64,000 bases of DNA from Bigelowiella natans CCMP2755 (lineage: Eukaryota; Protista; Cercozoa): assembly GCA_000320545.1 (NCBI GenBank), contig ADNK01002608.1:62001-126000 (forward strand), read 5' to 3'. The first letter of the stretch is position 1. Each line of letters opens with the position of its first letter. The notes below the pieces were generated by a model that made no database searches, was not told the origin of the DNA, and worked only from the letters and a program-made list of their open reading frames with translations. A program made the translations under genes and the position numbers. Shown piece after piece: positions 5,554 to 62,600 of the stretch.

Positions 5554-5608
5554 CGCTGTAGCCGCTGCATTGCATAGCTACATTAGGATGACAATTGAAA
5601 AAATTTAA
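5554..5608 (+). mobile_element. LINE 3'-end fragment
   Basis: cgctgtagccgctgcattgcatagctacattaggatgacaattgaaaaaatttaa matches 15320-15374 of the full LINE. Confidence 0.85.
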
Positions 5609-5627
5609 ACTTTATACGTATATACAT

Positions 5628-5797
5628 ATGAGACGGATGTAATGAAATATTTAAATTTTTTCAATGGTCATCCTAATGTAGCTGTGCAATGCAGCGGCTA
5701 CAGCGCTTAAATTGTATCTGTTTGTTTCCTTGGTCACATGGCGCATGCATGTGAATGCATCATGTTTTGGTCTAGCATGTCGCGCTTTGCGCGCAGC
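5628..5797 (-). mobile_element. 5'-truncated LINE copy (about 170 bp of 3' end), antisense
   Basis: Reverse complement of 6493-6662 (atgagacggatgtaatgaaatatttaa...ctttgcgcgcagc). Confidence 0.9.
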
Positions 5798-5829
5798 ATG
5801 TGTACATGTACATGTACATGTGTACATGC

Positions 5830-6660
5830 GGCAACATTACCACCACGTCATCGCACACAAGTCCAATGCGCCGCAGCATGGTTGCGCACCAATGCATATG
5901 GGTGGATAAAAATGATGGCAACGGTCACGTGGTTGAAGAAGAAGTGCTCAATTGGAGCTCCTTCGGATGCCATGTTGAAACCTTGCTAGAACACAAATGG
6001 CATGACACAACTAGATCATGGAACAGAGTGTCCTTGTACCGCCGACTCAGTTTGATCACAACCAAATTGCTTGGAGCGGAACACCCCACAACACATGCTA
6101 CAAGCAAGACACTAAAAAAGAAATTGAATGCACGTGGCAAAACGATCATGCGGAACGCTGCATCTAACTTCAAAACAAACTGGTGCAAAGAGGGAACAAA
6201 GGCCATGCCTTTGAAGAAACTTGGATTCATGCCTGGCTCTAGCACAACAGGAATCACATTGAAGCTACCTAGCATTGCCACATCATGGATGCGCGCCATG
6301 GCAACCTTGGAACTTTCTTGCTATCCAGAGGACAACGCACAGAATTGGAAGCAACATGCGACACATGCAACACATTGCAAGACATGGACCACAGCTAGAC
6401 AGAGACTCAGAATCAACAAACAACTGACGGCCATCATGGATCGCAACGATGAAACTACGCGTCTCTCAAACGCAGGAAAATTAGCTCGTGCAGCTGCGCG
6501 CAAAGCACGACATGCTAGACCAAATCACAATGCATTTTCATGCATGCAACATGTGACCAAGGAAACAAACAGATACAATTTAAGCGCTGTAGCCGCTACA
6601 TAGCACAGCTACATTAGGATGACCATTGAAAAAAATTAAATATTTCATTACATCCGTCTC

Positions 6661-6662
<2 letters not shown>
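5830..6662 (+). mobile_element. 5'-truncated, frameshifted LINE copy (related subfamily)
   Basis: Translates to TLPPRHRTQVQCAAAWLRTNA, LKLPSIATSWMRA and ETNRYNLSAVAA, homologous to the ORF2 C-terminus at 14530-15374. Ends catccgtctcat followed by (TA)n. Confidence 0.92.
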
Positions 6663-6702
<40 letters not shown>

Positions 6703-6879
6703 TACTATGTAAACTATGCATTCATCGAGCTAGATTATTTGCCTTGATAATGTGTTCAAATTTAGCATTTTATCCAAATGCGGGCTTATTGACGAACGAA
6801 GCTACTAGTGTCCATCATTTGTGCGCATGTCTGACACGCTTTTCTAACTTTCAAGTTGGGGGCCGCCTGGTAGATACGA

Positions 6880-9893: not shown

Positions 9894-10320
9894 AATTACT
9901 TTTACATTGATGAATACAAAAAAAAGGGTTGCAAGAAAGGGAGTCAATGAAGCTCTCGCATTAATGCACTTATGCATGCGCACGCGCATGCACAAAGCCG
10001 ACTTAGACCTGTCGGCAAGGTCACAATTTGAAATAGTAGCTGCTTTTCGCATACTATCGTTTGATAGCGAAAAAAGGCCGTGCGTGCACGACTAGATGAC
10101 CGAAGATGCGTCGAGCATCGTCAAATAATCGATGCATCGCTTAATGATGCGAGCCTCGCTCTATAGATCCACCACACTAGCACAGCAAGACACAGCAGAG
10201 CACCGGACGTGCAAATTATTGTACGTTTGGATCCACACATCTATATATCTCCAAATCTATAGAGATCTAGCTAGACATGCAAGTCTGGAAATGCTGTGCG
10301 TGTGTGCTAGATTGCGTAAT

Positions 10321-10435
10321 ATGAGACGGATGTAATGAAATATTTAAATGTTTTCAATGGTCATCCTAATGTAGCTGTGCAATGTAGCGGCTACAGCGCT
10401 TAAACTGTATCTGTTTGTTTCCTTGGTCACATGTT
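10321..10435 (-). mobile_element. Left part of a short antisense LINE copy split by the full-length LINE
   Basis: Reverse complement of the LINE 3' end; continues at 15394-15463. Outer 15-bp TSD agattgcgtaatatg at 10309-10323 and 15464-15478. Confidence 0.93.
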
Positions 10436-10480
10436 ATAACGGACTCATAGCCGCGCACAAGTGAAATATTGCCCACCGTG

Positions 10481-11911
10481 ATGATCACGCGCAGCGCGCG
10501 TGGCAACAACAAGCACCAGACACCCAAAAAGGGAAGAAAGCACAAAAAGAACCAACACGCAACGTTGGATCTCGATTCAGAATGCAATGATGACGACTGT
10601 GGCTCTGATAGGAAAAGTCATGATCTGTCTCAATGCCTTCGCGAAGTTACTTCAACACTGTCTGCAACAATGGAACGCAAAGAAACTCCTCAGTGGAACA
10701 CAATGAAAAAATTGTGTGAAATGCTGACCACAATGGTCCAGTTAGTTGATGAGAAACAACAACAATTGCAGCAAGATCAAAAAGACATGCAGGAGGAAAA
10801 CGCTGGGCTTAAAAACAAATTACTGAAACTTGAAGAAGAACTGACTTATATCAAGGAACATCAGAAGAATGGCACAATGGAAGCTCAACCCTCCTCGATG
10901 CAACGGACCTCGAGAACTTACGCTAGTGTCACAACCTCATCACGCGCTGATGAACCTCATGGTCGAGATAAATATCCTGAAGCAGAAGTACAAAGACTAG
11001 CTGAGCGAAAGAATAGCCAGAGTTGGCAAGTTCCAAAAAGTCACGCCAGGAATCAAAGGAAATACAACCGGAAGTATAAACAGAACGTGCTCATATTGGA
11101 ACTTGACAAAAAAGCCATGCTGCAAGCGGGGGGCGCCATTATGGCCTCCGGCGACCCATGTCGCACTGTTCTCACTGGCAAAAAAAAACATGCCAACGAA
11201 CCAACAAGTGAGGAAACAAACACAGCAGATCCGAGGGATGAAAACCGCGACACACTGACAGAAGTTAACACCGAGGAAGAAGAGACTAAATGCCTAGCCG
11301 GAAAGAACGTAGAGGATTTGAACCCATCCAGTGAAAAAAAAGATGTTCCAGATATTGGGAAAAACCTGTCCAAAATAACTCCAAAGTTGATCGATGCACT
11401 AGGATTGAACGAATTCCAAATGCACGTAGCTTTCCAAGCGAAATATGGGAAGGACTTTCAAGGAATCCAATTCAAATCTAGGAATAAAACCCACCTAAAA
11501 GTGTTCTTCAAAGGCTCCAGAGAATCTAAGATGGATGCTTACCTGGATCTGCTTAACACCGAACATCAGTTAGGACAAGGATCATTCCTTCCCTCACTCT
11601 TTGGATTAGTGACCACAGTCAGAGCAGCTAAGTCAAGGCCAAGTAAGCACTCTGTAGTTCTGAGAGGCCCAAGGCTGGGACCTAACGAGCAGGAAAAATC
11701 AACACGAATTGGAATCATCAAGCAGATAATCGAAACCAACATCGATGTAAAAGTCGCAGCAATAGAACCTCTCGGCAAGGGCCCTCTACTTCAGCTGTTT
11801 GTGCACTCGCATGAAGAGGCCACCAAACTGCTGAATTCACAAATCACATATCAGGGCAGCTACCTACGATTCAGGGCATATGAAAACAGAAGGACACGTA
11901 AATATGGTTAA
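10481..11911 (+). CDS. LINE ORF1 (coiled coil plus probable C-terminal RRM-like fold, no CCHC knuckle seen)
   Basis: About 476 aa open frame upstream of ORF2. Coiled coil QQLQQDQKDMQEENAGLKNKLLKLEEEL; SVVLRG...EEATKLLNSQITYQGSYLRFRAY is typical of LINE ORF1 ends. Confidence 0.85.
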   Translation: MITRSARGNNKHQTPKKGRKHKKNQHATLDLDSECNDDDCGSDRKSHDLSQCLREVTSTLSATMERKETPQWNTMKKLCEMLTTMVQLVDEKQQQLQQDQKDMQEENAGLKNKLLKLEEELTYIKEHQKNGTMEAQPSSMQRTSRTYASVTTSSRADEPHGRDKYPEAEVQRLAERKNSQSWQVPKSHARNQRKYNRKYKQNVLILELDKKAMLQAGGAIMASGDPCRTVLTGKKKHANEPTSEETNTADPRDENRDTLTEVNTEEEETKCLAGKNVEDLNPSSEKKDVPDIGKNLSKITPKLIDALGLNEFQMHVAFQAKYGKDFQGIQFKSRNKTHLKVFFKGSRESKMDAYLDLLNTEHQLGQGSFLPSLFGLVTTVRAAKSRPSKHSVVLRGPRLGPNEQEKSTRIGIIKQIIETNIDVKVAAIEPLGKGPLLQLFVHSHEEATKLLNSQITYQGSYLRFRAYENRRTRKYG

Positions 11912-14900
11912 TCATTTGAATCTCCCCTACTACTACCAAAACATACGCAGTAAAAACGGAACTGAACAAGGCAGGCAAAGAATAAATAGAAGATATAATA
12001 TGTTAAAAGAAATGATAACCACCAACAACATCGAACTCGCCTGGTTTGGGGAAGGCCGCCTCAAAGAATCGGAGAGGCTGCATCCTCCAGCGGGATACGA
12101 AGTGATTCGGACGAGCGGCTCCTCTGGGAGCTTTGGATTAAGAAAAAAGAACACAGATATAATTCATATACCTATAGATGATAACAATTACGATATTAGT
12201 TTTTTCATACACAGCATTGAAAAATATGCTGTCATAATGGTGTACCTCCAGCCACACCAAAACATCTCACATCTGAAAGAGAGATTAGATTTCATAATGA
12301 ACATCATTCGGAAACAGAAATGGAAAAAATACATCATCGTGGGGGACACTAATGCTAAACACTCCACCTACGATGTCCGAAACCAAGAAGATAGACGTGG
12401 CAGATACCTACACCAGTGGTTGTCGGATAACAACATCATGATGGTCAACCCTGGGGAAGCCACATATTTCAGAAAAGGAAACACAAGCACACTTGATCAT
12501 GTGCTGTGCTCCTCAAACTTCGCACACCAAATAGAATATCAGATGGCCAACACCACGACAAGTGACCATTTCGGTATCCACTTTGGAAAACCTGTGGCAA
12601 TCCATCAACAGACTTCACCAATGATATATGACATCGACAAATTCGATGTAAAACGATTTGACGAAAAATTGAATAATATTACCGAACGCTTGCACCAGCG
12701 CATACTAAACGTTCAATCGGAGGCTGATGCAAAAAAGCTTGAACGCTGGTTCTGGGACTTTACCGGAAAAGCTTTTAATAGCTGCACACCAAAAAAACGA
12801 CAACGTTGGAGTCCAATCAAGCCATACCAAAACGACAAAAAATATAAATCCATCAAAGATCAACAAGAAAAATTATTTAGATCCTTGAAACACGAAAGGA
12901 AATTTCGGAAGAGAAAATTATTAGAAACCAAGATCCAAGAAATCAACGCCGAACTTGAACGAACCACCGAAACCCTTCAGTACGAAGCATGGCAATTATT
13001 CTTGTCTCGCTTCGAAAAATACAACAATGGGAATCATACCAGAATGCTGTACAAATTATTCCAAAAATCCAGAGGGCGGGATAAATTCGGAGGACTCGAT
13101 GGCGAAACCTCTGAAGAAAAAAAATGTGAAGTGTGTGTTGCCAAATGGAAACATATCTACAAACCACACCCGTCAGACAAGAAAAATCGAACCTTTCACG
13201 CTGAAACTGAGGCCTGGAGAAATACCTTCAGGAAAAATGAAGACAAAAAGATCCACAGTGTTAATTCATACAACAGAGATTTTTCTATGCATGAACTAAG
13301 AAACGTGATCAACAAAGCATCACCGTACAAGTCTCCTGGCGATGATGGTGTTCACCTAAACATGTTGAAAAAAAGCAAGAAACTCCATCAACTGTGGTTA
13401 GCTACATTCAACACGTCATATAGATGGGGTACCCGAGATGGCTCACGTAAGGCGGCCATTTTTTGTCTCATCCCTAAGGCCAACAAAGAACTTAACACCC
13501 CTCTCAACGGGAGAACGATTTCTCTCCTACAAATAGCTTCAAAAATAGAAGACAAACTAATAGAACAACGGCTCCGCGAAGCTATACCCCCCAAAAACAT
13601 TAGCATACATCAGTATGCATTCATGAAAAATCGATCCTGCGAAACTGCACTCACAAAGATGACGCAGTCAATCGAGGATGGAGTATATAACAAAAAGCTT
13701 GCAGCCATCCTGTTGTTTACAGATGCCTCTAAAGCTTATCCAAAAGCCTGGCATTCCGGCATGATACGCAAGTTACATGACAAATACGGAATACGAGGCT
13801 CGCTATTGCTGTGGATCGACGACTGGCTCAGAGATCGTACCGCCAGATTCAGATTTGGCAATACTCTCTCTGAGCACATGAACCTTGGGAGCGGCGTCCC
13901 CGAAGGATCATCTCTCAGCTGTTTCCTTTTCATAACCTATTACGACATTTACGAACATATTACCAACACAGATTTCCAAATATACTGTGACGACGTTACC
14001 CCCTACAAATTGTTTTCGCCAAACCGATGGGGGAAAATGCAAGATGATATCCAGGCCGACCTAAACCAAATGACGGACTGGTGCATGAAATGGCGGATGC
14101 GATTCAATGGGGACAAGAGCGGGTACCTTATAATTGACAAAAGAAATAAAGCCCACCGACACCAAACCTCCTGGAACATCTCTCTCAATCTCCAAGGAAA
14201 AATAAAAAGAGTCGACAGCGGCAGATGTCTCGGACTAATCTTCGACAACAAATTAACCTTTGAAAAACATGCTCTTGCTTCTCACCTGAGATTGCAAAAG
14301 AAGCGAAGGTTTTTGTTAAGGTTGTGTTATTCCAGACACCTTGTACCGCTAAACGTCAGACTGAAATTTTACAAATCATGGTTCCTTGCATCCAGCAGAT
14401 ACGCTGCTCCAATATGGAGATCACGAAGAAACATACGAATAAAACAGATGGATTCCATGGAATCCCAAACCCTGAAACGTATATTGGGATTACCTGGATC
14501 CATCTCCAACGACGTCCCCCACGTCCTCACTGGCACGTTGCCACCCCGATATCAAACTAAAGTGCAGTGTGCTAAATCATGGTTACGCACTAACGCATGG
14601 ATCGACACAGGCAGCGGTCCTCAAATCCATGAGGGAATAAATGATTGGAGCAGTTATGGCTTCATCATTGAAAATCGAAAAATGTTGGATGGCACATCGT
14701 GGATTGATGTGGCCACACACACGTGGAACAAAGCATCCTTGTTTCGACGGCTCAAATCGATCACTGACGACTTGTTAGGTGACGAATTGCCCACCGTTTT
14801 GGCGACAACAGAGGCGCTGAAAAAAGAACTGAAAAAACATCACAAGGTGATGAAATCTTGTGCTTTCAACGAATTCGAAGAGGAATGGTCCAATGATTCA

Positions 14901-15374
14901 TTGCGCGCTGTGCATCTCAAGAATCTTGGTTTCCTCCCGTCATCTTCGATCACCGGCATCAAACTGAAACTTCCAAGTGTTGCTACATCATGGATGCGCG
15001 CCATCTGTGGTGTCGGCAATCTTGGCAAATTCATGCTGTCACGTGGACAATGCACAGAGGAAGATGCCACGTGCGATGCATGTGGCATCCTGAAGGACAT
15101 GGATCATCTCCTGCAATGTCCAATGCATGGTCGAGAACAAATCAGATTGCGCAATCAAATGCGCGCGATCATGAATCGCAACGACGACACGAACCGGTTG
15201 ACAAAGGCTGAAATTGAATCCAGAACTGCTGCGCGCAGTGCGCGGCAACATCGGTCGCATGAGGACGCTTTCAAATGCATGAAACACATTGTGGCAGAAA
15301 CCAACAGATGCAACATTAGCGCTGTAGCCGCTGCATTGCACAGCTACATCAGGATGACCATTGAAAAAATTTGA
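11904..15374 (+). CDS. LINE ORF2: APE endonuclease, reverse transcriptase, C-terminal CCHC zinc motif
   Basis: Endonuclease motifs YQNIRS, IVGDTNAKH, TLDHVL, TSDHF; RT motifs KSPGDDG, QYAF, DASKAY, GVPEGSSLS, YCDD, CLG; zinc motif CDAC...HLLQC. ATG 11904 overlaps the ORF1 stop (ATGGTTAA). Confidence 0.96.
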   Translation: MVNHLNLPYYYQNIRSKNGTEQGRQRINRRYNMLKEMITTNNIELAWFGEGRLKESERLHPPAGYEVIRTSGSSGSFGLRKKNTDIIHIPIDDNNYDISFFIHSIEKYAVIMVYLQPHQNISHLKERLDFIMNIIRKQKWKKYIIVGDTNAKHSTYDVRNQEDRRGRYLHQWLSDNNIMMVNPGEATYFRKGNTSTLDHVLCSSNFAHQIEYQMANTTTSDHFGIHFGKPVAIHQQTSPMIYDIDKFDVKRFDEKLNNITERLHQRILNVQSEADAKKLERWFWDFTGKAFNSCTPKKRQRWSPIKPYQNDKKYKSIKDQQEKLFRSLKHERKFRKRKLLETKIQEINAELERTTETLQYEAWQLFLSRFEKYNNGNHTRMLYKLFQKSRGRDKFGGLDGETSEEKKCEVCVAKWKHIYKPHPSDKKNRTFHAETEAWRNTFRKNEDKKIHSVNSYNRDFSMHELRNVINKASPYKSPGDDGVHLNMLKKSKKLHQLWLATFNTSYRWGTRDGSRKAAIFCLIPKANKELNTPLNGRTISLLQIASKIEDKLIEQRLREAIPPKNISIHQYAFMKNRSCETALTKMTQSIEDGVYNKKLAAILLFTDASKAYPKAWHSGMIRKLHDKYGIRGSLLLWIDDWLRDRTARFRFGNTLSEHMNLGSGVPEGSSLSCFLFITYYDIYEHITNTDFQIYCDDVTPYKLFSPNRWGKMQDDIQADLNQMTDWCMKWRMRFNGDKSGYLIIDKRNKAHRHQTSWNISLNLQGKIKRVDSGRCLGLIFDNKLTFEKHALASHLRLQKKRRFLLRLCYSRHLVPLNVRLKFYKSWFLASSRYAAPIWRSRRNIRIKQMDSMESQTLKRILGLPGSISNDVPHVLTGTLPPRYQTKVQCAKSWLRTNAWIDTGSGPQIHEGINDWSSYGFIIENRKMLDGTSWIDVATHTWNKASLFRRLKSITDDLLGDELPTVLATTEALKKELKKHHKVMKSCAFNEFEEEWSNDSLRAVHLKNLGFLPSSSITGIKLKLPSVATSWMRAICGVGNLGKFMLSRGQCTEEDATCDACGILKDMDHLLQCPMHGREQIRLRNQMRAIMNRNDDTNRLTKAEIESRTAARSARQHRSHEDAFKCMKHIVAETNRCNISAVAAALHSYIRMTIEKI

Positions 15375-15393
15375 TTCTTCATCACATCCGTCT

Positions 15394-15463
15394 CATGTTG
15401 CATGCATGAAAATGCATTGTGATTTGGTCTAGCATGTCGTGCTTTGCGCGCAGCTGCATGAGC
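15394..15463 (-). mobile_element. Right part of the split antisense LINE copy
   Basis: catgttgcatgcatgaaaatgcattgtgatttggtctagcatgtcgtgctttgcgcgcagctgc is the reverse complement of 6490-6553 and is contiguous with 10321-10435. Confidence 0.93.
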
Positions 15464-15718
15464 AGATTGCGTAATATGTACGCATGCATGCTGATACAGC
15501 GTAAGCGATGCATGGTATGCTGGTACAGCTTAGCTGGGAAGTCATATATGCACGAGGCTTGAATGAGAGATATTTTAATTTATCATTGCTAGATTGGAAT
15601 ATTTTAGGTTGCTAGATGCATCATGGATTAGCTGGCGTTGGGGCAGAGATTACAGCAACTCTTTACGATTCAAATAATAGTTCATGATACAACTTAAATC
15701 CTCTAGCCCTGTTGAATC

Positions 15719-15836
15719 ATAATCCATCGCTTTCTGCAGCCTCACCAGCGTCAGAAGACTCTTTTTCATAGAATTTTAGTCCTAACTCTGGGTCAATAGG
15801 CTTGTGCTTCTTGTCGGATCTCTGCAACAAGCAGAG

Positions 15837-18759: not shown

Positions 18760-19789
18760 AGATGCTCTTGCGAAATTATACTATCTTGGACTGTGATTGT
18801 CTGGAGAGGTATGCGAATAGGGGGTGAAGTTGCCTGTGGCACTAGGATCTACTCATTTATCTCCCTCCTCCCATGATGATGGGTGCACAGTGGCTTCTTC
18901 AGAGAATGTTGCGATGACATTGAAATGCAATGCTTTTTGAATCTGCGACAACCCAGTATTTGATGATTTTCTAGTTTTTTGGTGGTAATGAGGTGTCTTT
19001 CTGCTTTGAGGACGGATGAGTTAGCCCCATGATCCTTTCAACTGCTCCGATGGAAACCCTTCTTTCTTTCTTTCTTTCTTTCTTTCTCTCTTGACCATCT
19101 ACTTGAGTGCGTCCAGCTTGTTAATAGTGCTAGCAGCGCACCTTGTTGGAATGTCGAATGAGTGCGAGCCTTGAATCTTGATCCACGGCAGTCTTCTGGT
19201 CTCAATCGAGGACGTGGTGAAGCTGGGTGCCCGTCCAATGACTTCCAGCCTTCCAGCTGCACGATTGCAGTTGTTTCGTTCACCCATGTGTTCTTGATGA
19301 CTTGAGACCCGAGGGTCACAGATGAATGTATCAATCACGTCAGCGCATGCGTGCGACGAACAAACCCTCCGTTTTCCTTGGAGGTCCATTTGTTTGGGAA
19401 TCGAGGAAGTGGGCGATGAAAGGTGATGAATTGACACTTTCAGGAATCCGATCTTTCAGCTACGTAACGTTGCAAACACTCCGTTCATTTGTTTGTTTAA
19501 TCACTCCTAGACTCCGTCTGTTCACTCCTAGCTAGCCAGACTCGTCTGTCCACCCGCGTTCATGCAAACCCTCCGCTAGTCCGGGTTCCTGATGCACGAC
19601 AGGCTGGCTAGCTGGTGAAAGTGGCGACAAGCGACCGCCAGCGAACGGCAGCAACAAACGAGCAGTAGCACGCAAGGAGCGAGACGCGCATGACCGCTCT
19701 GCGCTTTTTCATGCATGCGATGAAAGATGAAAGACATCTAGACATCACAATAATGATGCAATGGTGCAGAAGAACCAAGCCGCATGTGC

Positions 19790-19930
19790 ACAATTTGAGC
19801 GGTGTGTGGCCGCTGCTTTGCACAGCTCTAGCTAGCTAGACTAGTAGAGCCAAATTCTAGGCGAATTGTGATTAGGATGACCATTGACAAAATTCAATTT
19901 GATCATTCTGGCATTGCCATCCGTCTCGTG
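19790..19930 (+). mobile_element. Highly degraded LINE 3' end
   Basis: gccgctgctttgcacagct...attaggatgaccattgacaaaatt...ccatccgtctc matches the family tail, interrupted by a CTAG-rich insert. Confidence 0.8.
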
Positions 19931-20885
19931 CAGCATGCTAGCATCTAGGCATGCTTGTCTAGATGTGTGTGCATGTCCATTGTCGAGGCACCAAGCCTGC
20001 ATCATGCTAGCATGATGCGTGACGACTGGCTAGCTGGGCCCAGGCTTTGTTGATCATTTCCGCATCACAGCACGCGCATAGGAATGAGGGAACAGCGCTG
20101 AGCACTAGCTAGCTAGCTAGAGCGGGGCAGCCAGCATGCACACAACTAGCCTAGATCTGACAACACCAGAACAACATGCATGCACTTGTTAGCTCCTTCA
20201 TCTCTAGCCTAGTCATGCATCGCATCCATGCAAGCACATAACTCTAGAATTAGACAACCTAGCTAGCTAGCTAGATCTTGCTTTCAGCTTGAATGATCTT
20301 GATGATGATCCGATGAATGTGCACAGCGCATCTCGCTAGCTCGCAGCTATGCGATGTACACACCGCACGCAGGTGTATCAGTATGCTAGCATGATATAGT
20401 GATGTGTATGTAGCGCATTGTAGCAGCTCTGAACCAGCGTCATCTAGATCATGGTTAGATGGGTCCCGCATCGCACTTGGTACGTCTTGAAACGAAGGCA
20501 TGATTGAGTTTGTCTAGCTATTGAATTACATGACTACAAGAACATTCACTGAATCTAAGAACAAATGCATACTGATGTGTAATTTATTGATGAACAACGT
20601 TAACATATATGATTAATTATCACAATGGTTATTTATAATCACTACGCTAATCAATTGAGTTGATCCGGATGTAAAACCGATGTACACCGTTACTACTGAT
20701 ATTACTATAATTTCTACTAATCCTATGGTGTCGCGAATTGATAATACTAGTGCAGGAAGAATGTACAGTTTAAGTCTTGCCTCATCCCTTTGTTAACAGG
20801 ACTACGACGACGGTTCCGGGATGTTATAACGTGATGGAATAAGGAGCGCGAATGATGATGAGCGCTTGCTCAGCGTCAATCATCC

Positions 20886-21912
20886 TCAAATTCGTAGCTC
20901 GTCCTCAAGATGACAGTACTCAAATGTGAAATCTGACTTTATCCTCTTGCACCAACCACTCTCATAGTCGAAGAAAACGTAAGTACCCTGTTCATAGTCC
21001 TCGTTTTTAAATTTTGGGTCATTGTGGCGCTGAAACCATGTGAGAAACTTCTTATGGTAGCGCCAGCTCTGCTTCTTCAACTCCCGAGCGGCGAGATATT
21101 GGTGTTGGGTGCCTTGCTGGAAGTAGAAGATGAAGAACAACGTGTCCGTATCAAATTTGGAGAAGAAGTTTGGCGAGTCGAACACCTGAAATATGATGAA
21201 TGAATACTTTAATGCATAAGAAGTTGTTGGGATTATTTTTTGTTCTTCTTCTTGTGTCTCATCATCTGTGGGACGATTGAAACTGACCGGTGCTGGTAGA
21301 TCAGGAAAGCAGGAGGGCGTCCTGTATGGATTTCCAGGCACGTACTGCTTCGGCCTCTCTGTATCTACTGATCCAGGCATATTCCTTCTGGAAGAATCTA
21401 ACATATCTAAATTCTTCAAATATCTCTGTGTGATATTTTTCTTGCCCAGCACAGACAACGACGCTGCCCCCCCTACATTTCTTTCGGCTGTAGGATCTCC
21501 TCGAAGATCCCTAGAGATTGATCCCCCAACAGCAGCGCCAACAACGCCAGGTATGCCATCTGCAAGAACCCTCTGTGAATTGCAAGACGGACCGCTACTA
21601 CTACTACTACTAGTTCCACCAGTGAGAGTAGTTCTATTACCATTTGCTGCACTTCTTCCCATTAGTCCAATGACTCCCGGAGGTACTCCTCCTGCTCCAC
21701 CTCCTGAAGAACCACCCACATAACGACTACCAGTACCTGTTAGGAATAAGGATAAGGAATCAGCTTTAAGGTGGATGTTAGTAGTAGTAGTGGAAGGTGA
21801 GAGAGGAAGTACGATAATACGGCAAATGTAAGATATGCCACTCGCATTCAAGTATCGTTCCTCCACTCCTACTACGACCTCGGAAGTCGGCCATTATGGA
21901 GAAGGAGAGGGA

Positions 21913-33997: not shown

Positions 33998-35296
33998 AAG
34001 TGTTCGCCACCACCAACATAATTAGCAGGTGCACCCACTGATTTAGCATGTGGACTGAGAAAGGTTGCTAAAAATCGTGTGTTTGGTTCACAAGCATAGA
34101 TGAACTGCGGCAATGACTAGATGACATGAGTGAGCGTTGCATGATGGGCATGCTACACCCTACGCACCATGCTAGCTCTGTGCATCGATCCGCCGCCGCA
34201 GCGCTACGATGCAAATCGATGGGTGATGTGTAGATGATACCATGCGCACATTGTGCAATGATAGAACATTGCATTGTTGTGTTGCGGAGCCATGTCAGCG
34301 CTGGTGTCATTGTGATTTCATAGCATTGCTGCGGACGCACGTACATGCAAACAAATTGCATAGTGGAGGCATCGCTGCGCATCGCATTAATGTCATTGCG
34401 CAGTAGTTACTCGGCTTGTCGTAGACATGACAATGCATGTACGTCTGCACAGCTAGAGCGCATCGCCAGCATCACACATGGATCCGATGCATCACATATC
34501 TAGACATGCAGGCAGACCAAACAACCACGGGCACTGGAAACCTCTGCTCCTAGCGTCGGCAGTTTGCACTGTCTAGCTATATATAGCTGTTACGCAGGTC
34601 AACGTACATGTGATGCAGCGTGGCGTGAATTTCAATGTGTCCATGCATCCATCGTGCACATGCGACTTGAATGTCTCGCACACTGAGAGCATTCATGCAT
34701 ACTCACATGTGCATCATGGCGTGCTCAACTGCATGTATCGTAGCCCACTACACCGCGTGTGCCAATCTAGCTATAGCAATAATGAGTTCATGGATGCATG
34801 GCTGTGCCTTTCTAGCTTTTCTCATGCACACTTCTAGACATAATCACTACACATGAATGAAGCTAAACTTCAGCGAAGTGATGTATGTGCCACTCATCTG
34901 CTTAATAGTGGTCCACGTAGAGACATGAAGTCTCTATGTTTGATCATTGCTGTGCGTGCTAGTAGTACTTGACATGAGGCTATCCATAGTTGACAACAGG
35001 CACAGTTCATGTGACGCACACATTGAGTACAAATATGAAAGTTATGTCTATGGTGTGACGTACGTGCGCAGAAATACTGTTCTATTTGACATCACATGCA
35101 TCGGTGTCGTATCTCTCAACCAACTATGAGCGAGAGAAAATTTTCAGCAAAGTGCCATGAGTATTTTTCTATAAAAACACTAGACATTCTTCGTTCGCGG
35201 ATTTGTCATCACAGGGATCTCCAGCACCTAAGTAAGTGGTTTGATTAAGAACGACAATGATTGGAGGAAATCGTGTGCCATTACTTGCGAATAGGG

Positions 35297-36887: not shown

Positions 36888-38672
36888 GTAAAGACATCGT
36901 TCAATGCCTCTAATATATTCCTTTCACAAATACTCAAACAATTCTTACGTAAACAGATCTGGAGTGCAAGCAGAAAGTAGCCACATAGAGGAAAAGGGCG
37001 ATTCAATTTAACTTTAGAAGCCGGATCTAGCGAGATTCGGTGTAGCAGCATCGTCCGTATCCATATTAATCGCGGTAGAAGTCATTTTTTTCTTTTCAAT
37101 CCCAAGCACATGCATTTTGTACAGAGTGGTTTGATACCAACAACGTTCCGGGCTCATCATGCGAATGATCGTGCGGCACATACACAAAACAACCACACAA
37201 TCACATCATTGGTCACAAACGTACATCTTCCCACCACGCAACGCCCATGCAAAATTAGATGATGTCATCAATCTAGCAATCATAATCAAGGGTAGAGACA
37301 CCAGCACAGACGTTGTATGCCTAGGCAATCAAGTGGTTGCTGCATTGACTAGCTAGAGATTCCATGCGAAGCAAATATGCAAAACTAGACTGTGTCAAAT
37401 CAAAAAACCAGAGCAATAATCATCGATTCTGTCCGCAAAATCGCACGTGATTTGATCATTAGTCGTACGCGACGCCGCGCGCGCGTCTGGACAACTCCGT
37501 CAAACAAACAATGAGAAAATCTGGTCCACGCCGTGACCCTGCGTTGATGCTGGCTTGCTAGCGGGCTCCAGTGCTGCTGCTAGCTTGACAAAGCGTCTAG
37601 CTGTGTCTCCAGAAAACATGCAAGTGTTCGCTCTCAAGTGTAGAAGAGATTATTTTCAAATTTCAAATCTTTTCGCTGCAAACTTTGGCCAAACTTGCTT
37701 GCCAAGCACGATGAGCCACCAGAGCACGGAGCAAGCGAGCGCGATGCCCAATGTGACGACTAGACGATCAGACGATGTTGTTGTCACTGGCTAGCTGGCT
37801 CTAGAGCTACGGGCTACACCCATGATTGTTGCGAGAGACCGTTTTTCATGGCATGATCAACCTCTGCATGGATGCACACGCGTGTGCTATGATCATTGCT
37901 GTGAAGATGCGCAAGCTCACCATCTTCGTTTTGCCACGTCATCACCCAGCTGTTCTTTGAAAGGAAATTCTCTGAAAGACAGCACTGATGGTTCTTCAGC
38001 TCTCCATTCATGTGACATGCAGCCCAATTTCAGTCGCAAGGCCATCAAGGGGATGCGGATGAGGCTTTCGTGATCAATTTCAATGAAGAGGAGGAAAAAG
38101 AAAACGTGTGCGGTGTCGACGAAGTGACCCGCATCGTGGAGACGGCTGATGAACGAACGAATGAATGAACGAGTGCACTGGTCAACGAAGTGATTTCAAT
38201 GGTGCCATGAGGATTTTTGGGCTTTCTGACTCATCCACTTCCTCCTCGATCAGCAAGACCCCCATGATCAACGAGCTCTCCAGGGGAGGGAGGAAAAAAA
38301 GACAGAAAGCATGCTCATGTCGCAGTGGTTAAGTCCCCTCGGTTATTCACTTTGCGACAACACCTGTGGTGCATTCTAACTCTATTTAAGGAGTCTCTCC
38401 GCATTTCCCGCCAAATATTTATTGACACAAAATAAATAATTACCCTTTGGAACATCCCTCCTTTACTCTGTAAGTGTGAGAGAGGGGCCTCAGTAAAGTG
38501 TGAAAAAATAACGTTTGTGCTCTATGGGACGAAGTGTTGCGGGATGTTTGGGGAATTTTAGTCATTCATGTTCTTGTCAGAGGTTATTTATCTGGTGCGA
38601 TGTGCACTGTGAACTTTTAGCACACATCGTGTTCGAATAAATTGCTTATGGTTGATTCCATTAGATAGCAAG

Positions 38673-49673: not shown

Positions 49674-50277
49674 ATGTTTTTGATTGGGGTAAAACATTGA
49701 CACGGAAAAAAGATAATCACGGACGAATTTGTAAGTAAGAAAAATAAGAAGCCATATTTCGCTCAGCGCGGGTTGGATGAATGAAAACTATGCTATCGAC
49801 CAAGGTGTTTAGATGTACATCCAACTCTAGAAAGGTTTGTTTGCACGCATGCGACTCGAACAGATATGTAGAAATTGCAGTTTGAATGTCGAGATAGATT
49901 AATCACTATCTAGCTATGCCATGCCGCCCATAAAGTACATGTACACCGCAGCTAAATTTGCAGCGCACATCCAAGGATGAACGGTGCCGTAGGTGGTTGC
50001 AAACATGATGTACACAGTCTAGCAGTGTCCAAAACGCTGGTAGATGCTGTGCAGTCTACATCTGAACATCTCTAGATCTAGACATGCACATTTTTACACG
50101 TGAAACTGCCATGGTACTGTGAATCACCATGCACCTTCTAGCGTTCTAGCGTTGCCGCGCTCACATCATGAGATGCAACTCGGCACTCTAGCACTGATGA
50201 TGATCGGTCGACTTCATCGTTCGCACATGTACATCACATTCCATCAAGCAATCTGTTCAATTGTGTCTAGCGAGTAA

Positions 50278-50337
50278 GTGGCTACAGCGGTAACTGACAT
50301 TGAATCTGTTGGTCTCCGCTACGATGTGTTTCATGCA
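50278..50337 (-). mobile_element. Degraded LINE 3' fragment
   Basis: gtggctacagcg...aatctgttggtctccgctacgatgtgtttcatgc resembles the reverse complement of 15277-15331. Confidence 0.7.
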
Positions 50338-50752
50338 GTCTAGCAGTGCGTCAACAAATGCATCTTGCTTCGCTAGCTTCGCTCATCTAGTCATGCACAC
50401 GTGTGAGGAGGTGTTAGATTTCAGATGATTTCTGTTCACATGTGCACAAACACAAACACGCATGCGCACGGCTAGACGGCATGGCTAGATCTGAGATGGC
50501 AACAAGGCCATGTTTGTTGCGAAAGAGAAAGAATTGGGATGTCTTGCATGCATGTCATGTGAGCTAGTGTACACGATGATCACTTCTCCAGTGCATCATT
50601 GATTCCAATGTGCGGGCGGCGTGCGGACATCGGATGTGATGTTTGCACCCATTATTTCTCCTCACATGTGTTATCAGAGAATGATGGCGAGTGTTTGACA
50701 TGCAACTTTCATTTTCATCCTCTCGTGTCCTAGTGTCCTCCATCTACACCGT

Positions 50753-50787
<35 letters not shown>

Positions 50788-51073
50788 CATGCATGCATGC
50801 ATATACACATGCACATGTGTATGTATATATTATATGGTATGTATATACATACACACATCATGCATGCACACGCTGTGCCCGCATTCAAGCAGTGTAGCGT
50901 GTTGCGTTGCGTGTCAAACACGTAATGCCCATTGTCTGTTGCTGACAATGGACATAACATGCATGCTACACATTCTGCATGTAGCACATGGTGTGTTCAC
51001 AGTCTACAGTGCTGGATCAAGTTAGACATTGCTGGTCAAGAGAATTAGACAGGCATTTTAGGTGCAATGCACA

Positions 51074-51576: not shown

Positions 51577-52535
51577 CCTGAAGAGAAATTATTGTCAAAG
51601 GACATGCTGTAAGTCTTTCAAGAAAGAATTGTAATTTAGGAATGGCTAAAGGCATAAGCGTTTTCAGAACTTGGCACGGCAAACAACTTATTACGCTGGT
51701 GGGCAGGACTCTCGTGTGTTTGCCCCTTCCTTGTTTTTTGTGAGAAGCTCTCAACTTGTATTCGTGAGTGAGGAGATGGAGACAAAAGTGTAGGGGAGAA
51801 AATGTATCGCCAATCTATTATTCCGTGTCGCAGGTGCAAATTCGAGAACGAACGAACAACGAAAATAGAGTTAAAGATCCATCGGATGTTTCGTTTTCGA
51901 GAAGGGTTGATGAGGGTAATTATTATGTGTATTTGTGAAAGCCTTAGCTTCCTAAGATCAAAAATTGCGAGCGCGGTCCTCGTGGAGGTCCGGTCGCGGG
52001 TATTGGACATAGTTTTCAATTAGCACAGAAACCGATTCAGCAAAGCTTCATAATCTGGTTTATGCCTCCTGAGCAAGGACAAATATTGGAACAAGCGACT
52101 CATGTGGGACATTGAGATAGATCTCATTGCCATGAGACTTCCAGGCCTTTGAAATTTTTTCCAAATGTAAAATGGCTCATTTTGGTTGCAGCAGATGTGT
52201 TTTGGCCTGTAGTTTTCCTTTTCATCGATTTCAATTTTTGTCCTTTTCGTCTGTGTTTTCACGAAGCGACAACATCATCTTGGCGTCCTGTCTAGTCGTA
52301 GTGCATTTTCACATGCGCGTTGAGCGAAATCAAGAGCATGATCATCATTTCATGGTCAGGTCCGAAGCAAGAATGCATCGGACCAGCAGGATCGAATCGA
52401 TGAGAGTCTGGGTGAATCACAGACACAGCACAGCAATGTGATGTGTGCACAATGTGCACATCATGCTGCATGTCCATCATGTGAAAGTGGGCACAGACGG
52501 TCGGGCCCACCTAGCTAGCTAGCTAGCTAGCCACG

Positions 52536-53340
52536 ATTGGTGAAACTTTCCAGCTGTTTGTTGATCGACCACACCTCCAAAGAGTTGCACGAGCGTGACC
52601 ACCATTTTCAGTCTCAACAAGCAAGCTGCATGCTCACATGGTTTGGTGGTGCTGCCAGTCGACACCAGCTAGTTTTGACCATCAACACCAACAGGGCTAG
52701 AGGGTGCTGACTGCACGTGCTGACAAGTCCTCGCAATGATTTTTGTTTGCAGGTGCGGCTTCGTGCAAATGCACGTCTCCCACGTGGTTCTTGCGCACGT
52801 TGATTTTTGCACCAACCCAGCTCCAGAGCTAGCCAGCAATGCTCAGTTCAATGTTCAACCTTCAGTGTTCTTTGTCTTTCTTTCTTTCTTTCAAACAAGC
52901 AACATTCCACTTGCACACGCTCGTGCACACAGAGCCTTCATGGCTACATGGCGTACGCACACATGCGAACATGTGTTGCGCGGCATTTTTTGTGTCATGT
53001 GTTGTGAACACAGACATGACACCAAAAAGGACCCACACACGCAGTGGACAACATGTGTGCTGATGGGCTGTGCGCCATGGAGCCTTCTAGCCTTTGTGGC
53101 TACACATGATAAAATCCGTGGCACGAAAAGTTCTGACATGGCAGGTGTTCTTGTGACCTGGCTACTGGTGGTCTAGCTAGCTGGTGGTGTTGAAATCGGG
53201 GTGGCTATGGAAACCCCGCCTAGCACGTCACAGCTAGTGCGTGCGGACAAACACAACACTACGCTGCAGAGACGTGTGACATGGCGCATTGGTGGCACAC
53301 TAGCAGCTCGCGCGCATGCAAGCATGACTAGATGATGGCG
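52536..53340 (+). pseudogene. Possible hypermutated ERD2/KDEL-receptor-like relic
   Basis: Collinear fragments IGETFQLF, KSC...SLNKQ, QVLAMIFVCRC, IFCVMCCEHRHDTKKD, APWSLLAFV, GVLVTW, VEIGVAM..SQL resemble ERD2 once His/Cys/Met are reverted to Tyr/Ile. Frameshifts and stops present. Confidence 0.3.
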
Positions 53341-53379
53341 GGGTCTACTCACTGCAAGCATGTTGAACATCACTAAACC

Positions 53380-53558
53380 ATTGCTATGTGATGCATGTCA
53401 TATGTACGGCGAACAACAACCTGCTCTAAATGAAGGATTAGGACTTGTTTTCAAATACAGCTTAACAATTGCTATGTGATGCATGATGCATGTTGTATGT
53501 ACCGAGCCTATGCGAACAACCTGCTCTAAATGAAGGATTGGGACTTACTGTGAAATAC
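53380..53558. repeat. Imperfect tandem duplication (about 80-90 bp x2)
   Basis: attgctatgtgatgcatg...aacaacctgctctaaatgaaggatt(a/g)ggactt...aaatac occurs twice. Confidence 0.9.
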
Positions 53559-59616: not shown

Positions 59617-62600
59617 TCATCGCTTTCGGAACTTCACCAACCACCAGGTAATAGATTCCTCTCTAACCTTATCTCCTTTGTCGCTTACCCAGAACTCACC
59701 TTCGTCCTTAGGTTCGTGTCCATACCAGCCCTCTGCATCAAGGTCCCCCAGGACCTTATACCAGTGCTCAAAGGGTAAGTCGGGAACAGCTAGGTAGAGT
59801 AGCTGATATTTTCCGTCCTTTATTTTCATAGCTACCCTCTCCATATTTCGTAATCCAGGGTAGCCTAGATAGACAATCTTCATGCGCCAATCGTCGTTCA
59901 CCCTGACCTTATTGTTTCCATATTCCACATCGAACTTAGGTCGGGGTCCTAAACAAGGCATTGCTCGCTCCCACACAGTAGGGTTTACTTTAACATCCTC
60001 TAGGAGCTTCTCACCGATATCATAATTCTTTAGGTGACTGATGTGGCGCAAGGTGACCCTGTTCCCATCATAGATGTAGTACTGCTTCCTCCCCTTCCTC
60101 TCGGTAACCTTTGCAACGCCACCCCAGAAGGGGTCTTGTTTATTTCTCGATCTCAGATTTACCTTGGCCCTAACATACTGTCCTTCCTTTAGAACTCGGC
60201 CATCGTACGGGACCTTCTCGTCTTCGCTCTCGGTATCGTCGTCGTTGTCGTCGCCTTCTTCCCTCTCCTTATCCTTGATACCTCCCCCAGACGTGAAGGT
60301 GTCGTTTACTAACCCTTGTATCTTGTCTGGTGTGGTGCTATTTATCCTGCTTAGGTTGGCCAAGGTGCGGTGGAGTCGCTCTACCTTGGAGTTGGACTGG
60401 GCATAGTATACAGGTGAGGCATCAATATTAGGGTGTGGTAGCTGTAGAAGAGAGGTCTCATTATCCACATGTAACTTCTTTGGTATCTTGTTTATGCTAA
60501 CTTCATCAGGGATAGCCTGGAGCTCAGACTCCCAGGTACGGTAGCAGTTAGTAAGCCTCTGCTTATATAAGCCTTTGTTCTTCTTAGCAACGTTGACCTT
60601 GATAATCTTTTTAACCCAGCACTTTCCAGTGGCCACATCAACGAAGGTAAGGTAGTGATAGCCATCGTACTTATAAACATCAATTTGCACGATATCTAAG
60701 AAGTTCCTTGCTTTGATTTTCTTAGATGCACGGCTCTTGCTGGACTCCTTGGTGGCGACGCCTGCCGCCTTCAAGCTGGAGCACCTGCAGCCACGCAGGT
60801 ATGTCCTTATCTCTTTTAGCTTGTAGGGCCAGTAGTAATGGTAGAGTAGAGCAGTGATATGGTTTTCTCCTACGTGTGCAGGTCCATGGGCGGTAAAGAG
60901 AAGGGCTCCCCTGGTCCGCCGTGGCACGTAGGTACGCCTAACATTATTAGTGTATACATATATCCTATCACTAAGTACCTCATGCTTGTGTTTGTATTTA
61001 TCCAGGTGTTCTTGAAGGTGCTGGAGCTCCTCTGGCTCAGGCAGGAAGTCGCCGTCCTCGAAGGTAATCGCGTTAACCATAGGGGTGACCTGGGTAGGGA
61101 CTTTCTTTTCGAACAGCCTGCTGAAATAGTCAGCAAGCTGCTTGTCTCCTGGTGCGTAGACCACTGTCCTCTTGTCCCTAAACTCTTCCGTGTCCGCCCT
61201 CATAGCTGCATACTCATCGTTAGGCGCTTCGAGCTTGCGGTCGATGCCTAGGAGGGGCTTGTGGTCAGTCATTAAGGTGAAGCTGGGCACCGACAGCAGG
61301 TAGTATCTTAGTTTCCTCTGCGCCTCAGTCATGGCTTTATACTCTCCTTTTGTAGGGCTGTACTTGGCCTCAGCTGCTGTGCAGGCCCTGCCCCACACCC
61401 GTATGATCTGCTGGTCTTGGGTAAGTACAGCAGCCATACCTAGCTTAGACCAGTCTGTCCATAGGGTAGCTGGTCTAGTAGTGTCTAGCTTAGCATTCAA
61501 TAGGGTGTTGCTGCATAACTTTATTAGGTTATCGAAGTGGGCATCAAGGCCAGCCTTGGCCCACACCTTAGCGAAGCTGAGGCCTACAGAGTTCTCCTTC
61601 CGGTAAGCAGTAGTAAAAGCAGCTGCAGTCCTAGCGTAGGTAGGGGAGAACCTACGTAGTATCCAAGCTGCAGTCTGCAAGAATGACTTTAACTCCTTTG
61701 CATTCTTAGGTTTAGGGGCTTGCTGTAGTGCTGCTACTTTCTCGGGGTTTGGGGTGATGCGGCCTTGCTCCAGGTAATATCCACACCACTTGATTCTTGT
61801 AGCTAGGAATGTACACTTCTGCAGTCTAATAGTAAAACCGAAGTGTGCAAACCTAATAAATATATTTTCCAGGAGGAAGATCTGAGCGACGACTGTGTTG
61901 GTACATATTATGTCATCATCCACATACACAAACACAAACACCCACAACACAGACGCCATCCCATCATGTGTGTATGCCCTGTAGTTCTGACTACTGAACG
62001 CATCCCCTGATATGCTTAGGCCGTAAGGGAATACGACGAAGTGCCACTTCCTGTGCCTGCTGGAGAACGCGGTAATGGGGCGGGAGGTTTTGTGGATGGG
62101 TGTCTGCATGTATGATTCATTTTTATCTAGGGAAGAGTAGTATTTGTATCCTATGACGTGTTCAATAACGTCATCTATCCTTGGTGTAGGTGTCTGGATC
62201 CTCTTTATTACTCGGTTGTGGCGGATGAAGTTGTGCGCCAGGCGGAAGAAAGGGTAAGTAGGTTTCTTAGCTAGCACATGTCTCACGTTCCATGGTGAGT
62301 TGCTTGGCTCTATCTTCCCTTCCTTTGCCCATTCATTGATCTGCCACTCTATCTTTTCCCAGTCCGCTTCCGGTCGCCTATGTTCTGGGTCATTGATGAT
62401 GCACTCTTCGTATCCCTTCTTTAGCTCGATCTTTACTGGGGTAAGCTTGCTGGAGGGCTTCGTCGTCGGCTTGGTGATGTCAGAGTACTTCTCGTTTAAT
62501 ATTTTATTAATGTACTTTTTGCCTTTGTCGATATCCCAATCATCAGCTGGGGGGGTCTTGTCCAGTAGCTCCGTTATCTGTCGGATGGTCTTGCCGGGGT

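Follow-up and report, generated by a model that had tools for sequence, protein, structure and literature searches.

How a retrotransposon comes to carry ends that are almost free of one dinucleotide, around a core of ordinary composition, is the question raised by a locus of Bigelowiella natans CCMP2755 (contig ADNK01002608.1 of assembly GCA_000320545.1, positions 62,001 to 126,000; this whole stretch of 64,000 nucleotides is called the window in the following, and positions are counted from its first letter). The window contains a full-length APE-type long interspersed nuclear element (LINE) on the + strand (10436..15395; family A), in which TpA is scarce at both ends. The first-pass annotation of this DNA took the scarcity for a gradient of hypermutation caught in progress on one young insertion, a striking version that is not borne out by the data. 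The TpA-poor ends are the majority sequence of the family, inherited from its source element; they are probably, though far from certainly, a record within the source sequence of the TpA>TpG/CpA mutator of B. natans, which would have reached past source copies from their ends.

Recounting gave the figures already reported, that is, 3 TpA in 10471-10800, where base composition predicts 21.1 (rho 0.14), and 5 in the last 740 nt (14657-15396), where it predicts 50.4 (rho 0.10). Likewise, the first ~120 residues encoded by open reading frame 1 (ORF1) are indeed free of Tyr, the first one being residue 123; relatives hold only 2 Tyr in this stretch. The core (10851-14656) has 189 TpA (rho 0.66). 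It had been described as TpA-rich but is ordinary, at rho 0.66-0.67, two host ORFs of the window having values of 0.64 and 0.84. Both ends differ from the core (Fisher p = 4.6e-4 for 10471-10850 and 1.7e-12 for the 3' zone), also when the change-point is left free (permutation p = 0.0008 at the 5' end and 0.0002 at the 3' end). Instead of a smooth gradient there are two steps, near 10810 and 14660, which delimit a 5' TpA-purged zone of about 340-370 nt (10471..10810), a core with an ordinary TpA level (10811..14656) and a 3' TpA-purged zone of about 740 nt (14657..15396). Of the two troughs, the one at the 5' end gives the weaker signal, and the place of its inner edge is only loosely constrained (support range 10760-11849); the first 35 nt of the LINE retain 3 TpA.

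All five TpA surviving in the 3' zone lie in CTA or TAG. Sites were also counted in open context, meaning TA, TG or CA without C before and without G after, the share being TpA/(TA+TG+CA). By this measure the 5' zone retains 1/44, the core 129/443 and the 3' zone 0/102; the two ends together (1/146) compare with 34/99 in the host exon encoding a NOT2/NOT3/NOT5 C-terminal domain (20886-21893, - strand; one exon only), which fits a mutator directed at foreign DNA and sparing host genes; a Ty3/Gypsy-like element of the window is likewise unpurged. The adjacent flanks are richer in TpA than the LINE ends. The relic at the left junction keeps 6/20, the stretch 9900-10318 is partly purged (11/66), and 15464-15830 is not purged (19/54); the right relic has 0/15, and is itself a piece of the purged zone of a sister family.

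One could argue that no mutator is needed, and that the ends were shaped by amino-acid composition, or by selection favouring few TpA in promoter and 3' recognition sequences; the N-terminal part of ORF1 is T-poor, and the ends of such an element are functional regions. However, TpA is kept at only 3/22 synonymous sites of the 5' zone and 4/80 of the 3' zone, as opposed to 141/391 in the core (p = 0.037 and 1.5e-9), which indicates that protein composition is not the explanation. The survivors are, moreover, confined to a context that the mutator spares, and one and the same Tyr codon has become His in a sister family (family B) and Cys in family A. A history without the mutator is thus very improbable.

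A further peculiarity of the zones is that CC and GG are low in both (rho 0.65/0.66 and 0.53/0.77). When TpA conversion is simulated in the core, CC/GG rho comes to only 0.86-0.88 and 0.98. In addition, third-position T precedes C in 22/31 cases versus 61/133 (p = 0.016). It is possible that the zones bear a second signature beyond the loss of TpA.

Inheritance of the ends

Copies were compared via contigs of public sequencing runs and via protein collections. Four DNA-type runs (X8, X9, X13 and X14) were aligned over 10000-15800, the variants considered being 40 of 825 rows; the comparison of the 3' end, at 95% likeness and 8% share, covered all 23 rows. In X8, a contig of 586 letters spans 10438-11023 without a single difference at a depth of 987.6, which is about 16-19 times that of single-copy pieces (51-62) and close to that of a 1463-letter core contig (938.5). 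A contig of 525 letters (10499-11023) is equally free of differences in X13, X14 and X9, and residues 1-226 of ORF1 are identical in 4/4 members of its protein cluster. The number of near-identical full-length copies that have this 5' end in common is thus roughly 15-20, with values of 11-24 in the four runs.

The 3' zone gives the same picture. Pieces from X8 show 1, 0, 0 and 0 differences at depths of 968-2141, those from X9 show 1, 0 and 2, and a 760-letter contig from X15 (a run whose RNA type is an automatic guess) has a single difference, the loss of the boundary TpA in the codon of Tyr941 (14655..14656, + strand). This dinucleotide is CA in about 13% of X8 depth as well, and Tyr941 is Cys in the gene model of another copy. 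The LINE in the window departs from the DNA majority at 13414, 14712, 15124 and 15125, none of which is TpA in the majority; at 15350 it has CA, where TA accounts for 29% of X8 depth. Since the majority path lacks TpA or a TG/CA split at the 5' end, the copies have not been mutated independently of each other.

These data bear directly on the earlier proposal that hypermutation spreads into a young insertion from marked flanking DNA. At the contig level the copies have the same TpA-poor ends, the outcome that the annotation had itself named as the one speaking against it. Among the listed sites, none has TpA in the majority but not in this copy, 586 identical letters stand at multi-copy depth, and the immediate left flank and the first 35 nt retain TpA. 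In its favour are the analogy to leakage of fungal repeat-induced point mutation (RIP; PMC2973834), the loss of the boundary TpA 14655 in a contig otherwise of the same haplotype, and the partial purge of 9900-10318. Spread into the present insertion is nevertheless scarcely to be believed; spreading from marked flanks survives only as an inferred history of past source copies.

The description of the core as pristine holds for the young lineage but not beyond it. Gene models of dead copies have core Tyr replaced by Cys or His, 5/7 in P0069 and 6/7 in P0023, and P0074 has lost 3/3 in this way when compared with its own family. The core is therefore mutable, and intact only in the young lineage.

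Mark and context preference of the mutator

Among LINE copies in X13, A>G and T>C changes are found at 168 and 158 places, versus 81 and 85 for C>T and G>A. Within 13051-14638, 14 of the 16 listed variants are TpA losses, against a background of 17% of A/T in TpA. Most listed core variants disappear at 95% likeness, which indicates that they belong to older copies. In the 3' zone both CpA and TpG are elevated. The claim that the ends were made by TpA>TpG/CpA mutation is thereby upheld, as they bear the mark of a mutator acting on both strands.

Comparison of families leads to the same conclusion. Tyr residues common to families B (P0003) and C (P0065) are kept by family A in 10/10 cases in the core and in 1/3 in the 3' zone, where two are replaced, by His1098 (T>C) and Cys1159 (A>G). 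Of 10 family-B proteins, 3 have Tyr at the position of Cys1159 and 7 have His; with Cys in family A and His in family B, this codon represents one TpA lost in both directions. Two further arguments were set aside. One is that an old relic surpasses the present source in TpA (12 vs 2 sites), which was not used as proof because little TpA remains to be lost in the full-length family-B element, L001, and because C>T differences are equally common at CT and CG. Double TG/CA differences between lineages were not counted as evidence of a TpA ancestor either, as a CpG ancestor fits too.

Two known types of change can be held against this mark. Editing of the element's RNA by an ADAR-like enzyme, for example when paired with an inverted relic, might be fixed by reverse transcription; indeed, the LINE sits inside a 3' relic in inverted orientation, with 86% likeness over 104 nt, and a preprint on the B. 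natans mutator cites A preceded by U as the preference of ADAR (bioRxiv 10.64898/2026.01.13.699255). The ADAR signature is A>G on the sense strand only, however, whereas among the LINE copies, at the contig level, T>C and A>G occur about equally often (158 vs 168 places), His1098 and Cys1159 are both fixed, and CpA and TpG are both up in the 3' zone; the paired stretch, furthermore, measures about 100 nt and the zone 740. This reading is hardly credible. RIP, on the other hand, turns CpA/TpG into TpA. Here TpA is lost and CpA and TpG are gained, so that the RIP signature, C>T at CpA with TpA created, is absent. The same preprint likewise describes RIP as C>T mutation (bioRxiv 10.64898/2026.01.13.699255). 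In both processes, transitions specific to a dinucleotide affect either strand of mobile DNA, with distance effects which for RIP extend up to about 1 kb (PMC2973834). As to a dependence on duplicated sequence like that of RIP, the 3' zone roughly follows copy number, the 5' zone does not. They also differ in direction, as RIP leaks outward from repeats (PMC2973834), while the exposure that we infer here is that of the repeat ends.

The surviving TpA reveal a context rule. In the zones, 7/8 are in CTA/TAG, compared with 63/193 in the core (p = 0.003), and, conversely, 1/15 listed hit sites lie in CTA/TAG versus 25/72 (p = 0.03). In other TpA-poor parts of the window the survivors follow suit (109/167 in CTA/TAG vs 1363/3609). 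TpA preceded by C or followed by G thus resists, and the same rule applies in the purged zones and in the variation between copies. Among hit adenines TACG is frequent (5/15 vs 8/159, p = 0.002; a small sample, and one of five motifs tried); UACG is a motif reported for TadA-derived editors (PMC8052359). A hairpin at the 3' end was considered as the reason for persistence of the last three TpA, but the fold z-scores (0.49 and -1.84) are not persuasive and context explains them equally well.

According to the main text of the preprint, two integrated viral regions undergo TpA>TpG/CpA changes in mutation-accumulation lines of B. natans, at a rate of about 6e-7 per site per generation, the hypermutated regions being integrated DNA of nucleocytoplasmic large DNA viruses and virophages; an ADAT2-like deaminase is proposed as the mutator, and endonuclease-RT (reverse transcriptase) and RT domains are enriched among TpA-depleted coding sequences (bioRxiv 10.64898/2026.01.13.699255). 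Species, substitution type and action on both strands are the same as here. The difference is that the preprint reports new mutations in viral regions, while in the LINE it is the ends of multiplying lineages that carry the mark in fixed form, CTA/TAG being the resistant context. The mutator and its link to LINE domains are therefore already in print, whereas the end pattern and the context rule were found in no paper: in the literature searched, the main text of the preprint included, end-limited purging in active LINE lineages or a CTA/TAG rule is not described, most subscription journals being outside the coverage and the supplements of the preprint being a place where context data may be held. 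How the mutator chooses its targets is left open in the main text of that preprint, the only one to describe it, in which multi-copy DNA was masked, sites above twice the mean depth having been excluded (bioRxiv 10.64898/2026.01.13.699255). The LINE supplies evidence that rewriting by the mutator extends beyond dead DNA to the source lineages of active retrotransposons, and the context rule, with CTA/TAG spared and, in a small sample, TACG favoured, bears on the identity of the enzyme.

Position of the purged zones

That there is a positional effect, as had been claimed, is evident from a second family. This family, B, is represented by the full-length element L001, which shows 69% identity over 3.1 kb and came from a search of metagenome contigs (at least one locus from 594 pattern matches); a collection of viral contigs gave no relative. 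Open-context TpA in L001 amounts to 7/81 in the first 800 nt, 123/404 in the core and 7/139 in the last 1020 nt (permutation p = 0.0002 for each end). With a plain TpA change-point the 5' end gives p = 0.07, being significant only with open-context sites, a choice made post hoc. The zones of L001 are longer than those of family A and have softer edges. This positional rule, with both ends purged in two families, distinguishes models of spreading, of copy number and of selection.

Copy number, or pairing, was offered earlier as a possible cause. Pairing, small RNAs from the many 5'-truncated copies or 3' ends swapped in from mutated truncated copies could direct the mutator to the 3' ends of source elements, the 5' zone then having another cause. 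Depth of the family does rise toward the 3' end, in X8 from about 1000 in the core to 4447 from 14656 and 79833 over the last 190 nt, and several 3' haplotypes exist: contigs of the seawater RNA run X19 have 0 differences over 14348-14675 and 18 over 14883-15250, a pattern reflecting different copies or mosaic 3' ends; no use was made of the gaps in the coverage of X19. Yet the 5' zone stands at core depth (X8 1048 and 1009 vs 939-1072) and is purged in both families, so that copy number does not explain it. The depth jump at 14656 occurs in only 2 of the 4 runs, open-context TpA persists in short relics of the terminus with the highest copy number (6/20 and 6/31), and the main target of the mutator in the preprint is single-copy. 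We regard this explanation as unlikely, though deserving of some weight.

Somewhat more doubtful still is pure survivor bias, according to which patches anywhere in the element are hit, and only hits missing essential codons leave an active source. Clustered internal hits do exist (YLI>HPM in P0017), no Tyr is conserved between families A and B over 14403-15344, and none is conserved before 10919 across family A and its four ORF1 relatives. On the other hand, internal stretches lacking fully conserved Tyr are unpurged, namely 11078-11846 (25/80) and the linker of ORF1, and the scarcity of Tyr in the zones is in part produced by the purge itself. The linker is poorly conserved and keeps 8/28 synonymous TpA, versus 7/102 in the zones (p = 0.004). 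A 5' zone at core depth together with an unpurged linker favours exposure from the junctions; anchoring to the ends is further supported by the purge of both L001 ends and by the loss of the boundary TpA 14655 in some copies.

The preferred reading, the mutator reaching past source copies from their ends, could then work as follows. In a source copy, the 0.4-1 kb nearest the junctions would be the first part to be exposed. As an element is copied in full by retrotransposition, each tolerated hit would be passed to all daughters and hits would sum over successive sources. Sources hit at tyrosines of the endonuclease or the RT would stop multiplying, and the surviving lineage would retain its core TpA, synonymous ones included, by linkage. 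The enzyme might, speculatively, be an adenine deaminase of the TadA/ADAT type acting on silenced DNA. In B. natans, a single heterochromatin state, H3K9me3 with H3K27me3, is reported on transposons and repressed genes (bioRxiv 10.1101/2025.03.17.643675), and such heterochromatin is a possible guide of the mutator. RNA-directed DNA methylation at the edges of plant transposons resembles this as a host silencing activity at element edges (bioRxiv 10.1101/253567), but is methylation and not a fixed A>G change; the parallel is an analogy only.

Several observations weigh against that reading. Contigs lose rare variants, depth is a rough measure of copies, and the variant rows considered are a fraction of the total. 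Changes private to single copies of sister-family proteins also occur inside the core (alignment columns 397, 419-421, 738 and 765-767). The present flanks are mostly unpurged, apart from the partial purge of 9900-10318, and no spread is shown here. In family A, 14403-14656 keeps 11/28 synonymous TpA, which means that the last conserved Tyr does not determine where the boundary lies, and in family B the purged zone extends beyond conserved tyrosines. Taken by itself, L001 shows no significant CTA/TAG enrichment (9/19 vs 51/178, p = 0.12), and a Ty3/Gypsy-like element of the window has no purge at its visible end.

A more far-reaching version is tentative, and we think it rather less probable than its negation: erosion of active LINEs by the mutator would start at both junctions and extend inward for 0.4-1 kb, via a TadA/ADAT-like deaminase preferring TACG and sparing CTA/TAG, and families would persist with saturated ends whose boundaries are still moving inward. 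If erosion from the junctions is true, each LINE family would be a ruler of the reach and context of the mutator. No clear dependence on position emerged from the amino-acid variants in four ORF1 clusters of relatives. In P0027, hits at 3/17 sites (residues 123-165) are in line with a 5' gradient but too few; this gene model (10670-11215 plus 14934-15371) fuses the first part of ORF1 with the last part of ORF2, and represents an internally deleted copy or a prediction artefact.

The element, its insertion site and the window

The sequence 10436-15395 is an APE-type LINE by virtue of its APE endonuclease and RT, the lack of long terminal repeats (LTRs; self-comparison found no direct terminal repeat at the element ends), a short target-site duplication (TSD) and the existence of 5'-truncated copies. 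ORF1 (10481..11911, + strand) encodes 476 aa with a predicted coiled-coil N-terminal part; a Pfam scan yielded no family above cut-off. Its exact sequence is present in a protein collection, where the two named members of its cluster are B. natans gene models; two further such models match parts of ORF2 at 92% and 99% identity. ORF2 (11835..15374, + strand; 1179 aa from stop to stop, first Met at 11880) encodes, in this order, the APE endonuclease (PF14529, 64.6 bits, cut-off 27.4), the RT (PF00078, 65.5 bits, cut-off 29.6) and a C-terminal CX2CX7HX3C knuckle read by eye; the motifs GDTN, SDH and YCDD, the last one within the RT, could be located. Two ORFs, the domains, the C-terminal CCHC-type knuckle, the short TSD and many 5'-truncated copies are shared with APE-type LINEs in general. 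The copy in the window lacks a poly(A) tail, other copies continuing into TA-rich sequence that may be tail or target, and the nearest relatives beyond the LINE family itself are only 23-27% identical. Comparison with the PDB gave weak matches to R2 RT only (E about 1e-6). Two proteins labelled as Prorocentrum lima transcriptome, P0067 (13287-13919) and P0070 (12012-12569), are 99.5% and 97.8% identical to ORF2, which means either contamination of the P. lima data or recent horizontal transfer.

The intact TSDs noted in the first-pass annotation are real. They read (CA)TGTT and are 4-6 bp long (left, 10430..10435; right, 15394..15399; both + strand), the first two bases of the left one also fitting the 3' end of the element. 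The empty site is present in public DNA runs as joints 10429>15394 (6 shared letters) and 10431>15396, at a depth of 500-679 in three runs. The target was an inverted 3' relic of a sister family on the - strand, the left half of which (10319..10435) is not TpA-purged and the right half of which is 15397..15463.

Further 5'-truncated relics in the window lie at 5619-5797 and 5823-6662; the latter (5823..6662, + strand) is an older sister-family copy, 82% identical to L001, which ends at a (TA)n run. Relics at 5554-5613, 5619-5797 and 10319-10435 cluster, nested in inverted orientation. The last 100-160 nt of the family (15238-15396) reach about 80 times core depth in three runs, like a family the size of short interspersed nuclear elements. 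Copies end at (TA)n or CATG-like runs (window 5795-5830 and 6652-6710; L001 4969-5000); for the copy at 5823 the 5' flank resembles a (TA)n run that the mutator has rewritten, whereas the 3' run is nearly pure TA. TA microsatellites are possibly preferred LINE targets.

At the end of the window, the stretch 59617-64000 (- strand) is, judged by eye from the order of its domains, a Ty3/Gypsy-like LTR element, with RT and RNase H assigned by Pfam and a frame of 1460+ aa that runs past the window; its open-context TpA share is 0.18-0.44 in 250-nt bins from 59251. Further TpA-poor islands are found at 19001-20000, 34001-35000, 37501-38500, 50001-51000 and 52001-53500. In the four that were measured, open-context TpA is 3-10%, with the survivors in CTA/TAG, and these islands are likely other mutated repeats.

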